Source: a virus (Duplodnaviria; Heunggongvirae; Uroviricota; Caudoviricetes). Taken from it: a stretch of DNA of 64,000 nt. Position 1 is the stretch's first letter. Each line of letters begins with the position of its first letter. Made by a program: the position numbers. The stretch lies in IMG/VR virus record IMGVR_UViG_2939521961_000006; one strand, given 5' to 3'. Shown one piece after another: positions 21,001 to 27,000 of the stretch.

Positions 21001-24000
21001 AACTGCAGTACGCCCGGGATGTGCGCGACGGCAAAATTAATGATCCGCACTTTCTGCCGGTGATATTTGAACACCCTCCTGAAATGGTGGAAAGCGGGGC
21101 TCACCTGCTGATGGAAAACCTCGCCATGGTCAATCCGAATCTCGGCTATTCAGTGGATGAGGCCTTTCTGTACCGGGAGTACCGTAAAGCCCGGGAAGCC
21201 GGGGAAGAGACATTCCGGGGGTTCATGTCAAAACACGCCAATGTGGAAATTGGTCTTGCCCTGCGCTCTGACCGCTGGGCGGGGGCTGATTTCTGGGAAG
21301 AGCAGGGCCGTTGTATCAGCCTGGACGATATCCTGCGTCGTGCTGATGTGGTGACGGTGGGGATTGACGGCGGAGGGCTGGATGATCTGCTGGGGATGTA
21401 TGTGATTGGGCGTGACCGGGAGACCCGCGAATGGCTGGGCTGGGGCCATGCCTGGGCGCATGAAACCGCGGTGGTCCGACGGAAGAGCGAGGCGTCCCGG
21501 TTTCAGGATCTTGTTGCCTGTGGAGATATGACCATTGTCCGGCGTGTCGGGGATGACACGGCGGAAGTGGCGGAGTATGTGCGTCGCATTCATGAGGCTG
21601 AGTTACTGGACCATATCGGTATTGACCCGTCAGGGGTGGGGCAGATTCTGGATTCACTGGCGGAAGCCGGGATCCCCGACGGAATTGTGGTGGGGATAAG
21701 CCAGGGCTGGAAACTGGGCGGGGCCATTAAAACCACCGAGCGCAAACTGGCTGAAGGGGTGCTGGTGCATGGTGACCAGCCCCTGATGGCCTGGTGTGTC
21801 GGCAATGCCCGGGTGGAGCCTAAAGGTAACGCCATTCTTATCACCAAACAGGCCAGTGGACGGGGAAAAATTGACCCGCTGATGGCGCTGTTCAATGCGG
21901 TCTCCCTGATGTCCCTGAATCCGGAACCGAAAAAGAAAGAATATGCGGTTTTTTTCATATAACCCTGTTCACACTGTAACCATCACGAACCGCTCCGGCG
22001 GTTTTTTTTATTTTCAGGAGGCTGATGTGACTCTTAAACGGGCCTGTTCCCTGCTGACGGTGAAATCCTTCAGTGAGGATGAACGGGTGATCACCGGGAT
22101 TGCGTCAACGCCTTCTCCGGATCGGGATGGTGACATCCTGGAGCCGGAGGGGGCGGAGTTTGGCAGTGCGATCCCGTTTCTCTGGCAGCATGACCATTCC
22201 CGCCCGGTGGGGCAGTGTACGGTACGCCGGGTCAGCGAAGGGCTGGAAATCACGGCAACACTGGTGAAGCCCGTACCGGATATGCCGTCGCAACTGGCTG
22301 CCCGGCTGGATGAGGTCTGGGCGGCCATTAAGACCGGGCTGGTCAGGGGGCTGTCCGTGGGCTTCCGTCCCCATGAATACACCTTTCTGGACGGAGGCGG
22401 ACTGCATTTTCTGCGCTGGGAACTGATGGAGGTGTCTGCCGTCACCGTGCCCGCGAATGCGGAATGCACCATCCGGACCATTAAATCTTACGACCGCCCG
22501 TTTTCTGCCGCGTCCGGCAACCGGAAACCGGTGGTGAAAATCGCATCTTCTGCCGGCGCTGCGGCACAGTCAACAACCGTTTTTCATAAGGAAAAGACCA
22601 TAATGAATATTGGCGAACAGATTAAAAGTTTTGAAAACAAGCGTGCAGCGCTGGCAGCCTCCCTTGAGGAGGTCATGACCAAAGCCGCAGAGGAAGGGCG
22701 CACGCTGGATGTGGAGGAGGAAGAGCACTACGACAACACCGCAGCGGAAATCCGTCAGGTGGATGCGCACCTGAAGCGCCTGCGTGAACTGGAAGCCGGT
22801 AAGGCCGCCACGGCGCAGCCGGTGAAACAGGCCGGTAACGGGAATGTGGCCGCGGTGGCTTCTGCGCCGGTGATCCGTGTGGAGCAGAAACTGGATAAGG
22901 GGATTGGCTTCGCCCGCTTTGCCAAATCGCTGGCTGCGGCTAAAGGCGTCCGATCTGAAGCCCTGGAAGTGGCCCGTCGTCAGTATCCGGATGACAGTCG
23001 TCTGCATCATGTCCTGAAATCGGCAGTGGGCGCGGGGACCACCACGGATCCGCAGTGGGCAGGCAGCCTGTCTGAATATCAGGAATACGCACAGGACTTT
23101 ATTGATTACCTGCGTCCGCAGACCATTATCGGGCGATTTGGTCAGGGCGGGATCCCTGCACTTCGTCAGGTGCCATTCAATATCCGTGTGCACGCCCAGG
23201 TGTCCGGCGGTGCTGCCGGCTGGGTGGGTGAGGGTAAGGCAAAACCCCTGACGAAGTTTGATTTTGAATCCATCACCTTCAGTCATGCGAAGGTGTCGGC
23301 CATTGCGGTACTGACGGAAGAATTGATCCGTTTTTCCAGTCCGGCTGCTGATGCACTGGTCCGTAATGCGCTGGCGGAAGCGGTGGTGGCGCGTCTGGAC
23401 ACAGACTTTGTGGACCCGAAAAAAGCGGCGGTGGCGGATGTCTCCCCGGCGTCCATCACCCATGATGTGAAGGGCACGGCATCAACCGGTAACCCGGATG
23501 CGGATGCCGAGGCCGCGTTTGGCCAGTTTGTGACGGCAAATCTGCAGCCCACCGGTGCGGTCTGGCTGATGTCCAGCACCAATGCCCTGGCGCTGTCCAT
23601 GCGTAAAAATGCGCTGGGGCAGAAGGAATATCCGGACATGACCTTGCTGGGCGGGACCTTCCAGGGGCTGCCGGTGATTGTCTCCCAGTATGTGGGTGAC
23701 CAGCTGGTACTGGTGAATGCACCGGATATTTATCTGGCTGATGACGGCGGTGTGGCGGTGGATATGTCCCGTGAAGCGTCACTGGAGATGCAGTCTGAAC
23801 CGACCAGCGACAGCAGCACACCGTCACCGGTGGAACTGGTCTCCATGTTTCAGACCGGCAGCGTGGCCATCCGTGCGGAGCGCTGGATCAACTGGCGTCG
23901 TCGCCGTACCGCGGCAGTGGCGGTGATCACCGGTGTGAACTACGGAACTGCGTCCGGTGGCTGAGTCTGATGAGGAGGGCGGGAGGCGCGAGCTTCCCGC

Positions 24001-27000
24001 AGTAACAGATGGCAAAAATCCAGTATCTGCAGGGCACGCATGATGCCCGGGCCGGGGATATCCGTGATGTGGCACAGCCGTGTGCGGAGGTGCTGGTTCG
24101 CCTGGGGAAGGCGGAGTACATCACAGCGCGACGTCCGGCAGGTCAGAAAAAGAAACGTGATGCGGAGCATGGCGAATGTGGAACCTTTTGCGGCGAACCC
24201 GAAAAAACCAGAAATCAGGACGTGACGTAAGAGAAGTGGGCTGGCGGTCCCTGTTTCAGGCGGTGGCTGAGCCTTTTGCCGGTGCCTGGCAGCAGGGTGT
24301 GAAAGCCGATCCGGAAACCGTTTTGTCCTTTCACGCGGTGTTTTCATGCATTTCGCTGATATCCCAGGATATCGCCAAAATGCGGCTTCGCCTGATGCAG
24401 ACTGATGTACAGGGAATACGCCGGGAAAAGCGGCAGGGAGATACTGCCCGTCTCTGTCGTCGTCCTAATGCGCAGCAGAATCGCATCCAGTTTTTTGAAC
24501 TGTGGCTGAATTCCAAATTGCGTCACGGCAATACGGTGGTGCTGAAAATCCGCAACCCCCGGGGGCAGATCAAAGAACTGCGTATTCTGGACTGGAACCG
24601 GGTTGAACCTCTGGTGGCGGATGACGGCGACGTGTTCTACCGCATCACGCCGGACCGGAACTGTGGGATCACAGAGTCGGTGACGGTGCCTGCCCGGGAG
24701 GTGATCCACGACCGTTTTAACTGTTTTTTTCATCCGCTTGTGGGGCTGCCGCCGGTGTATGCCGCAGGACTGGCCGCCATGCAGGGGCATCATATTCAGG
24801 CAAATTCGACGTATTTTTTCAGAAATGGCGGGCGACCATCAGGCGTGATTGAGGTCCCCGGCAGTATTACGGAAGAAAACGCGAAAAAACTGAAGGGGAA
24901 CTGGGACAGCGGATATACGGGCGAAAATGCCGGGAAGACGGCCATACTGAGCAACGGGGCAAAATACAGCCCCACGACGTTTTCACCGGTGGATGCGCAG
25001 ACGGTGGAACAACTGAAAATGACGGCTGAAATTGTCTGTTCGGTGTTCCGTGTCCCGGCCTACAAGATTGGCGTTGGCCACCCGCCTTCCAGTGACAACG
25101 TGGAGGCGCTGGAGCAGCAGTATTATTCCCAGTGTCTGCAGACGCTGATTGAGTCCATTGAGCTGTTACTGGATGAGGCGCTGGAAACGGGGGAAAACGA
25201 GAGCACGGAGTTTGACGTCACCACGCTGCTGAGAATGGACAGCGAACGGCGCATGAAAACACTGGGTGAATCAGTGAAAAATACGCTTCTCACGCCCAAT
25301 GAGGCCCGTAAACGTGAGAACCTGCCGCCCCTTGCCGGCGGTGATGCACTGTATCTTCAGCAGCAGAACTACAGTCTGGAGGCGCTGTCCCGTCGTGATG
25401 CCCGTGAGGACCCGTTCGCGTCGGCCGGGAAAACAGTTTCAGCACAACTGCCTGACGGCGCATCTGACGGTAATAAGGCAATCAGTGAAACAGAGCATGA
25501 TGCAGTGAAAGCGATGTTCAGGGGGATACTGAGAAAATGACGGAACGGGAACTGTCCATTATTCGTGCACTGGGCGAAGAATTCTCCACGGTGCTGGCGG
25601 ATTTACAGCGCACATTTGAGGGGAAGATGGCCGCGCAGGCACAAGCGTTTGAAGAGAAACTGGCTTCCCTGTCGGCGGTATTACAGAAGCATGTGACGGT
25701 GGATGAGGTACATCCGGTTCTGCAGGCGATGGTGGATGACGCTGTGGGGACCATTCCGGTACCGCGTGATGGTCGTGATTATGATCCGGATGTACTGCAG
25801 CAGGCGGTGAATGATGCGGTTGCGAATATTCCGGTACCGGCGGACGGCAAAAGTATCACCCCCGATGATGTGCGTCCGATGCTTGAGCAGATGGTGAAAG
25901 AGGCTGTAAGCCATATCCCTGCTCCGCGTGACGGTCGTGATTATGATCCGGAAGTACTGAAGCAGGCGGTGAATGATGCGGTTGCGAATATTCCGGTACC
26001 GGCGGACGGCAAAAGTATCACCCCCGATGATGTGCGTCCGATGCTTGAGCAGATGGTGAAAGAGGCTGTAAGCCATATCCCTGCTCCGCGTGACGGTCGT
26101 GATTATGATCCGGAAGTACTGAAGCAGGCGGTGAATGATGCGGTTGCGAATATTCCGGTACCGGCGGACGGCAAAAGTATCACCCCCGATGATGTGCGTC
26201 CGATGCTTGAGCAGATGGTGAAAGAGGCCGTAAGCCATATCCCTGCTCCGCGTGATGGTCGTGATTACGATCCGGAAGTACTGAAGCAGGCGGTTCTGGA
26301 GGCGGTGAATGCCCTTCCGGCTCCGCAGGACGGGCGTGATGCCACGGCACTGGAAGTGCTCCCCGCTATTGACGATCAAAAATCCTTTCCCCGGGGCACG
26401 TATGCCACACACCTGGGTGGACTCTGGCGGGCGTATGAAAAAACGCACGGGATGCGGGGATGGGAATGCCTGGTTGACGGGGTGGCGGATATCGACGTCA
26501 GCATGACGGATGAGCGGTTGTTCTCTGTGGTGATCCGGCAGAGCAGTGGCCAGTGTACGGAAAAAACATTTTCCCTGCCGGTGATGCTCTACCGCGGTGT
26601 GTTCAGAGCCGGTGAAACCTACCACCCCGGCGATACGGTGACGTGGGGGGGCTCGCTGTGGCACTGCAACAGTATGACCGGTGATAAACCCGGAGAAGCT
26701 CATTCATCAGGCTGGACCCTGGCTGCAAAACGTGGACGGGATGCAGGAGGCGGAAAATGACGGCATTACTGACACTGGAAGAGATCAAGGCACATCTGCG
26801 TGTTGACCATGACGCGGATGATGACATGCTGATGGACAAGGTTCGTCAGGCTACCGCCGTGCTGCTGGCCTACATTCAGGGCAGCCGGGATAAAGTGATT
26901 CGTGAGGACGGTGAGCTGATCCCGGGCGAGGCATTAACCCGGATGAAGGGGGCTGCCATGCGACTGACCGGGATGCTGTACCGGAATCCGGATCTTGCTG

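Follow-up and report, generated by a model that had tools for sequence, protein, structure and literature searches.

A single head gene for prohead protease, scaffold and major capsid domains, with a conserved internal start signal, in an Stx1a-converting prophage

The head module and its gene order

The locus described here lies in a window of 64,000 nucleotides, the whole stretch of DNA that was analysed, from the Caudoviricetes record IMGVR_UViG_2939521961_000006 of IMG/VR. Nucleotides 22027-23964 are one real, selected gene, part of the head module carried by a lambdoid, Stx1a-converting prophage. The features that surround this gene, all on the plus strand, are as follows.

19086-19451, + strand: HNH endonuclease gene, the start of the packaging and head module (Pfam HNH; conserved 5' of terS in related loci)
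19741-20304, + strand: terminase small subunit gene, terS (Pfam Terminase_2; RefSeq annotation)
20301-21962, + strand: terminase large subunit gene, terL, directly before the fused head gene (Pfam TerL_ATPase and TerL_nuclease)
21987-22013, + strand: terminator-like hairpin GAACCGC-TCCG-GCGGTTT followed by a T-run, in the gap from terL to the head gene (the top terminator-like site of the region)
24009-24230, + strand: small conserved ORF of 73 residues in the gap between capsid and portal, overlapping the portal start (PHROG 829)
24176-25540, + strand: portal gene, 3' of the capsid gene (Pfam Phage_portal, 267 bits; TIGR01537, 365 bits)

The order terS, terL, protease-capsid, small ORF and portal is stable over all 27 related loci, which range from the Enterobacterales to alpha- and betaproteobacteria. 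In most related loci terL precedes the fused gene, as far as contig extent and the sensitivity of tblastn permit, and wherever a related locus reaches far enough downstream the portal gene keeps its position, except in L022, where tblastn detected none. An equivalent of the 73-residue ORF is kept in most Enterobacterales loci, and the Burkholderia phage vB_SBP39 has a small ORF in the same position between capsid and portal. The initial annotation described the protease and capsid as preceding the portal, the reverse of the usual order; comparison with relatives bears this out, as the order is opposite to that of HK97 and is, like the fusion itself, conserved across the lineage. The succession of terL, protease-capsid, small ORF and portal is fixed throughout this family of modules and does not reflect a local rearrangement. 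In the genome of E. coli O26:H11 11368, PGAP marks the neighbouring portal region as frameshifted. The terminator-like hairpin and its T-run recur at the equivalent spot 3' of terL in nearly all relatives; the hairpin is conserved, yet RNAalifold finds almost no covariation, with one of five pairs covarying, and a terminator and promoter scan of the region was overall not above chance.

The arrangement is already known: it is catalogued, annotated in RefSeq and very widespread, and it belongs to a well-known Stx1 prophage. The product of the ORF is identical to WP_000173033.1, which E. coli O26:H11 11368 carries in its Stx1a prophage, and PHROG 617 (626 positions), a family of fusion length, matches residues 1-639 with an E-value of 1e-261. 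That the head gene is annotated had been overlooked in the initial annotation; pipelines call it 'major capsid protein' in some cases and 'prohead protease' in others, and each name hides half of its function. Roughly a quarter of the complete E. coli genomes (1255 of 5426) carry the ORF, 1252 of them at 80% coverage or more, and it occurs uninterrupted in at least 91 phage records and in homologues down to 34% identity. A library search gave 12586 hits; nearly all of the top 150 representatives at 50% identity are full-length fusions of 630-680 residues, and precomputed Pfam assignments show the PF04586 and PF05065 architecture in almost all close homologues. A further homologue search with a diverse alignment returned only the same set at 70-78% identity. 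Against the NCBIfam model for prohead protease/major capsid fusions (NF045541) the protein scores 54 bits, the cutoff being 525; it is a protein of the same kind and not a member of NF045541.

Integrity and domains of the fused gene

The ORF listing gives a frame without stops at 21943-23964, within which the gene at 22027-23964 comprises 645 codons and a stop, 646 in all, with no stop inside. Its product opens with a serine prohead protease of HK97 type; a flexible linker and a helical delta (scaffold) domain come next, and a major capsid domain with the HK97 fold makes up the C-terminal part.

22015-22029, + strand: AGGAGG ribosome-binding site followed by the GTG at which translation of the full-length protease-scaffold-capsid product would begin (RefSeq start identical)
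22027-22455, + strand: prohead protease domain of HK97/S78 type, residues 1-143, with His55, Ser110, Glu135 and Ser137
22456-22602, + strand: disordered, fast-evolving linker, residues 144-192 (pLDDT, dN/dS and alignment with split proteases)
22603-22875, + strand: delta (scaffold) domain, two long helices and a flexible stretch to about residue 283 (AlphaFold; profile match)
22876-23964, + strand: HK97-fold major capsid domain, residues ~284-645, and stop codon (PF05065, TIGR01554, Foldseek)

The AGGAGG motif lies 5 nt before GTG 22027 and forms a Shine-Dalgarno duplex of -10.3 kcal/mol. RefSeq/PGAP and the GenBank phage records choose the same GTG, and relatives have GGAGG and an ATG at the equivalent start. 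Over the 2022-nt query (21943-23964) the sole mismatch to O26:H11 11368 is a run of T8 versus T7, which sits in the intergenic T-run at 22003-22010, 5' of the head-gene start; the coding sequences are the same. This homopolymer difference near the gene, together with the PGAP frameshift flag on the portal region of O26 11368, could be read as a sign that two genes were joined by a sequencing or assembly error, or that a defective prophage carries a pseudogene. However, fused orthologues occur in many genera, and both the protease and the capsid domain are under purifying selection. Because the T-run variant precedes the start codon and the identical, uninterrupted ORF recurs in independent complete genomes and phage records, we reject the sequencing-error reading and regard artefact or decay as having a negligible probability.

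The domain assignments made from the DNA at the outset, a protease, a coiled-coil region and a capsid joined in a single 646-codon frame, all stand. The protease domain scores 34.6 bits against Pfam Peptidase_S78 (PF04586; cutoff 21), aligns with HK97 gp4 in hhalign with a probability of 97.7% and an E-value of 1.6e-12, and agrees with the fold of herpesvirus assemblin and T4 gp21. None of 56 representatives of 38-78% identity departs from His55, Ser110 or Ser137, and 55 of them have Glu135; His55 aligns with H65 and Ser110 with S114, the catalytic pair of HK97 gp4. The NCBIfam equivalog for the HK97 protease, TIGR01543, stays below its cutoff (46.4 vs 59 bits), as might be expected if the domain were the relic of a dead protease retained as extra scaffold, with maturation proceeding protease-free or through a protease of the host or another phage gene. 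The invariant residues argue against such a relic, as do a dN/dS of 0.16 over the domain, indicative of purifying selection, and its retention in split relatives as a free-standing protease gene; we consider this explanation very improbable.

In the AlphaFold model the linker has a pLDDT below 50 (residues 144-190), and its dN/dS is about 3, on small counts; it aligns with the C-terminal tail of the free-standing proteases of the split relatives. The coiled-coil region takes the form of coiled-coil-like helices at residues 195-223 and 229-262 (pLDDT 93-95). A profile comparison pairs residues 195-272 with the N-terminal delta domain of a major head protein of solved structure (9gyi, residues 3-78). 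The delta domain has a dN/dS of 0.22, and the flexible stretch that follows it to about residue 283 is likely the maturation-cleavage region, with a predicted cleavage position.

The capsid domain is recognized by Pfam Phage_capsid (PF05065; 54.7 bits, cutoff 24.2) and TIGR01554 (78.8 bits, cutoff 27.5), and Foldseek matches it to the capsids of Bxb1, D3, HK97, T5 and the GTA with E-values of 2.5e-14 to 1e-9 and a probability of 1.00. Its dN/dS of 0.03 again indicates purifying selection. With respect to the chainmail cross-link triad of HK97 (K169, N356 and E363), K406 and E618 are present and the counterpart of Asn356 is Gly611, so that, provisionally, the triad is incomplete in this phage. 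Position 611 is Asn in 50 of the 56 representatives, and some E. coli variants carry K406R. This residue mapping rests on motif agreement and co-variation, because the alignment of the family profile with HK97 gp5 in hhalign is plausible but has a probability of just 4.7%.

A putative internal start at Met193

22583-22605, + strand: internal initiation region, AAGGA, a 10-nt spacer and ATG 22603 encoding Met193 (sequence, conservation and structure ranking)

The initial annotation noted an in-frame ATG at 22603, with a ribosome-binding site, from which a separate capsid product could arise. Our analysis strengthens this point: AAGGA precedes the ATG by 10 nt, the site is conserved, and it aligns with the starts of separate capsid genes. 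As in lambda C/Nu3, a conserved internal in-frame start is accompanied by its own ribosome-binding site. The duplex formed by AAGGA is of moderate stability (-6.2 kcal/mol), and an equal match occurs at about 15% of the codon positions of the ORF. The sequence around the ATG has a GC content of 0.30 vs 0.59 for the ORF and is the sixth least structured of 624 windows. Among 24 fused loci, which are related and do not represent independent samples, 22 have AGGA or GGAGG at 6-10 nt before the internal start, in different codon phases, and 22 have a 60-nt segment around the start that is among the twelve least structured out of about 600. The residues encoded by the internal Shine-Dalgarno sequence vary (KE, KG, KEG or ME), while all 15 of the Gly codons that form part of the motif are GGA, although most of these ORFs use GGA for only 2-17% of their glycines. 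Met is found at position 193 in 31 of the 56 representatives and one residue earlier in 16 more. Two fused relatives conform less closely: in L026 no Met aligns, and in L022 the codon is GTG and the context structured. In a few relatives the gene is split, and the separate capsid genes of vB_SBP39, Acidovorax and Snodgrassella start at the residue aligned with Met193, after AAGGA or AGGA, and capsid-only representatives begin at query residues 193-196.

Because the internal ATG, its Shine-Dalgarno sequence and the low-structure, low-GC context are preserved, the gene probably makes two products, and from the sequence these would be a minor protease-capsid fusion and a bulk scaffold-capsid protein. 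With moderate confidence, we extend this to the fusions of this family throughout the Proteobacteria, which as conserved two-start genes would keep the ancestral capsid initiation site and yield a protease-tagged minority and a plain scaffold-capsid majority of subunits. In the literature our searches turned up neither ribosome-profiling nor transcript or proteomic data on this gene, nor any study of the virion proteome for the long-tailed head module of Stx1 type, nor a paper that makes the two-start claim for these fusions.

Alternatively, the gene may encode a pure polyprotein, in which the 645-residue chain is the only product, every capsid subunit carries a protease, and the internal ATG and Shine-Dalgarno sequence are a tolerated ancestral relic. 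The upstream Shine-Dalgarno sequence is the stronger of the two by 10.3 against 6.2 kcal/mol, the aligned Met is missing from L026, fusions of protease, scaffold and capsid have been described in actinobacteriophages with no appeal to internal starts (PMC7302621, PMC5513430), and by our rough volume estimate 415 protease domains could fit in a T=7 procapsid. A relic should decay, however, whereas here the Shine-Dalgarno sequence, the rare GGA, the Met and an unstructured context of low GC have been kept between fused genes of only 37-77% protein identity, and the start signals lie within linker residues that are otherwise free to change. Moreover, HK97-like procapsids normally carry about 60-90 proteases and not one per subunit, with about 60 per 415 capsid subunits in HK97 and a likewise sub-stoichiometric number in D3 (PMC12749128). 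We judge the single-product reading to be unlikely, and favor two products.

A model for protease dosage, and its parallels

Our analysis suggests a model for this head gene in which a full-length fusion, independent internal initiation and protease-driven maturation are combined, and to which we assign a probability of roughly 0.7. Initiation at GTG 22027 would produce the full-length fusion, and the protease would enter the procapsid joined to a capsid subunit, a route that would replace the non-covalent targeting tail of HK97 gp4. Initiation at ATG 22603, directed by AAGGA and its 10-nt spacer, would produce a scaffold-capsid protein of 453 residues, probably the bulk subunit. If internal initiation is independent, the protease would therefore be sub-stoichiometric, as it is in HK97 and D3. 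After assembly, the His55/Ser110 protease is proposed to cut off the protease, linker and delta portions, probably around residues 265-285, which is our guess for the cleavage sites, and the capsid protein, once mature, would be about 360 residues long.

A close reference is provided by HK97 gp4 and gp5, which share with this gene the protease family and its catalytic His and Ser, the delta domain and the HK97-fold capsid protein; the modules also have HK97-type portal, connector, head-closure and gp10-like genes as neighbours in common. In HK97, in contrast, protease and capsid are separate genes that follow the portal, whereas here they form one ORF that precedes it. The vB_SBP39 (PV072743), Acidovorax and Snodgrassella relatives have orthologous modules at 39% identity with the same order of terS, terL, protease, capsid, small ORF and portal, and differ in that a stop codon and a change of frame part the protease gene from the capsid gene. 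The actinobacteriophage fusions have this architecture too, with protease, scaffold and HK97-like capsid encoded by a single gene, but belong to other sequence families and other hosts, and their gene follows the portal (PMC7302621, PMC5513430). A single protease-scaffold-major capsid gene has also been proposed for gp5 of the lambdoid temperate Pseudomonas phage MD8 (PMC8508860), where the protease domain is ClpP/lambda-C-like, unlike the HK97/S78 type found here. We set aside two further candidates as parallels: a CBASS preprint concerns a protease-scaffold fusion without capsid, and in the Cluster O mycobacteriophages the genes are separate.

Nested genes offer another comparison. Both lambda C/Nu3 and herpesvirus UL26/UL26.5 encode a long protease product and a shorter, more common in-frame product from an internal start, and in both the protease is delivered through the shared assembly domain. 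In these systems the two products share the scaffold only; here, with dual initiation as we infer it, they would share the scaffold and the capsid protein. OsHV-1 provides a further example of nested protease-scaffold genes (PMC11565193).

Fused and split orthologues share one gene order, and for this reason the family is a convenient system in which to study the targeting and dosage of a maturation protease. If our model is correct, the protease would be targeted covalently, with a stoichiometry set by the relative strength of the two initiation sites, and the logic of lambda C/Nu3 and herpesvirus UL26/UL26.5 would reach beyond the scaffold to include the capsid protein. The conserved signal for internal initiation amounts to a testable two-product prediction for the head gene of medically relevant Stx phages.

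A continuous protease-capsid gene in an Stx1a prophage

From its sequence we identify the window as an Stx1a-converting lambdoid prophage. Over positions 19000-27500 it shares 99.9% identity with the Stx1a phage Stx1a_10314, and its first 44 kb, the part compared, match the annotation of E. coli O26:H11 str. 11368. That annotation also places T3SS effector genes (nleG family, espW) at about 41500-44000, beyond the tail-fibre genes.

about 11477-12703, stx1A/stx1B, downstream of the Q antiterminator (annotation of O26:H11 11368)
21987-22013, terminator-like hairpin and T-run, located after the terL stop and before the ribosome-binding site of the head gene
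22027-23964 (+), head gene, 645 aa
23242-23244, 23857-23859 and 23878-23880, codons for K406, G611 and E618, the provisional counterparts of the HK97 chainmail triad K169/N356/E363
24009-24230, 73-aa ORF between the capsid and portal genes, overlapping the portal start (PHROG 829, no known function)
25537-26760, 407-aa ORF overlapping the portal stop (ATGA)

Protease and capsid form a single continuous ORF, as the initial annotation had it: frame +1 lacks stop codons across 21943-23964 in the ORF listing, and the gene opens at GTG 22027, five nucleotides after an AGGAGG. RefSeq has the identical annotation, WP_000173033.1, under the name 'phage major capsid protein'; in one GenBank phage record the same ORF is called 'phage prohead protease'. 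A sequencing error masking a stop, raised earlier as a possible cause of the fusion, is excluded because the coding sequence is identical in strain 11368, the 2022 nt compared (21943-23964) differ only at 22003-22010, 5' of the start, where T8 stands against T7, and 1255 of the 5426 complete E. coli genomes have the ORF.

The protease and capsid assignments are backed by domain searches, in which Peptidase_S78 and Phage_capsid both score above their Pfam gathering thresholds. An AlphaFold model built from 56 diverse relatives (mean pLDDT 81) predicts the following architecture.

residues 1-143, compact beta-rich domain
residues 144-190, disordered linker
residues 195-223 and 229-262, two long helices
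residues 267-283, second flexible stretch
from about residue 284, well-predicted C-terminal domain

Foldseek groups the C-terminal domain with the HK97-fold capsid proteins of Bxb1, D3, HK97, T5 and GTA (E 2.5e-14 to 1e-9), in agreement with the proposed fold, and the helices, previously described as a coiled coil, match the N-terminal delta domain (residues 3-78) of the solved major head protein 9gyi. When the profile is aligned to HK97 gp4 (97.7% probability), His55 pairs with H65 and Ser110 with S114; across 56 representatives (38-78% identity) His55, Ser110 and Ser137 never change, and Glu135 almost never does. The cross-link positions are conserved and co-vary (K in 51/56, N in 50/56 and E in 53/56 representatives), whereas the E. 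coli Stx-phage clade has Gly in place of the HK97 Asn, with K406R in some members, and may have lost covalent capsid cross-linking.

Against one 96%-identical Stx2a phage the dN/dS of the protease is 0.16, that of the delta domain 0.22 and that of the capsid domain 0.03; enzymatic and structural parts alike are thus under purifying selection. The linker value is about 3, from small counts (9 non-synonymous and 1 synonymous differences at 22456-22602), and synonymous divergence there is unusually low. The linker also carries a conserved motif, 'AASG ... AGA(S/T)A'; the likeness of this Ala-Ser motif to herpesvirus assemblin cleavage sites is speculative.

Relatives and gene order

An exhaustive representative search returned 12586 matches, 1187 of them below 1e-30. 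The best 150 representatives (50% clustering) are almost all full-length fusions of 630-680 aa, and the few capsid-only proteins start at query residue 193-196. Of the 27 related loci recovered from GTDB genomes, those of all Enterobacterales carry the ORF in fused form, as do those of Proteus, Mesorhizobium, Reyranella, Halopseudomonas, a Burkholderiaceae MAG and Candidimonas; protease and capsid are separate genes in the Acidovorax and Snodgrassella loci, and Burkholderia phage vB_SBP39 has them split as well. Loci with available flanks share the order HNH, terS, terL, protease-capsid, small ORF, portal, repeat protein, connector, in contrast to the terL, portal, protease, capsid of HK97. 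The 'reversed' order noted initially is a stable trait of this head-module lineage. The 73-aa ORF is detected in most Enterobacterales loci, and vB_SBP39 has a small ORF in the same capsid-portal gap.

The 407-aa ORF also follows the portal in distant relatives. It includes a tandem repeat with a 162-bp unit (25762-26294; 3.3 copies, 98% identity) whose changing copy number accounts for 162-bp length differences among Stx phages. It is annotated 'portal protein', PGAP joins it to the portal as 'frameshifted', and PHROG 2271 is an 859-position profile of both; its product may decorate the head or be a minor head protein.

The terL-head hairpin, with a T-run of T8 in the window and T7 in O26:H11 11368, recurs at the same position in almost every relative, Proteus, Halopseudomonas and Burkholderiaceae among them, and HK97 has a 'putative terminator' annotated directly before gene 4. 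It may be a transcript 3' end, an attenuator or an mRNA stabiliser. In a few database entries of about 1080-1094 aa (P0002, P0123, P0131) TerL runs on into the protease-capsid protein; P0002 forms a single-member cluster from one contig. They are probably artefacts, arising from gene calling or a frameshift in the short stretch between terL and the head gene.

A probable nested start at Met193

Where the capsid gene is separate, its initiator Met aligns exactly with Met193 (ATG 22603) and the gene is preceded by AAGGA or AGGA. That column holds Met in 31/56 representatives, and 16 more have it one residue earlier. In 22 of 24 fused loci AAGGA, AGGA or GGAGG lies 6-10 nt 5' of the internal start, which is ATG, but GTG in one locus. 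The motif varies in codon phase (AAG GAA, AAA GGA, AAG GAG GGC, ATG GAG), and linker residues outside it are variable. In all 15 loci in which a Gly forms part of the motif, that Gly is encoded by GGA, a codon that makes up just 2-17% of the Gly codons in the majority of these ORFs. Around the start, 60 nt have a GC content of 30%, versus 59% for the ORF, and the eight least-structured 60-nt windows of the head gene all fall at 22594-22621; in 22/24 loci the equivalent window is among the 12 least structured of about 600. What this pattern marks is a translation-initiation region that has been maintained, rather than constraint acting on the protein.

The internal ATG with a ribosome-binding site proposed at 22603 is thus present, conserved and aligned with split capsid starts; from it we infer the separate product. 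We propose a two-start mechanism in which the full-length protein, made from GTG 22027 with its strong SD, would carry the protease into the procapsid covalently, as part of a capsid subunit, while ATG 22603 would supply plain scaffold-capsid subunits. A less likely alternative is a polyprotein, with the full-length protein as sole product. With two starts the protease would be sub-stoichiometric, which it also is in HK97 (about 60 per 415 subunits) and in D3 (about 90 per 540) (PMC12749128), and it would then remove everything N-terminal of the shell domain.

Relation to known fusions

Protease-(scaffold)-capsid fusions form an established class, so the fusion reported here is correct but already known. 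The protein matches PHROG 617, a fusion-length 'major head protein' family, end to end, and another family, PHROG 4523, is called 'major head and protease protein'; an NCBIfam model, 'prohead protease/major capsid protein fusion protein', exists, although our protein is not a member. Such fusions are described in several actinobacteriophage clusters (PMC5513430, PMC7302621), and a counterpart with a ClpP-type protease has been described in Pseudomonas phage MD8 (PMC8508860). In the accessible literature on these fusions we found no discussion of an internal start, and, of the whole arrangement, only the conserved nested start may be under-appreciated.
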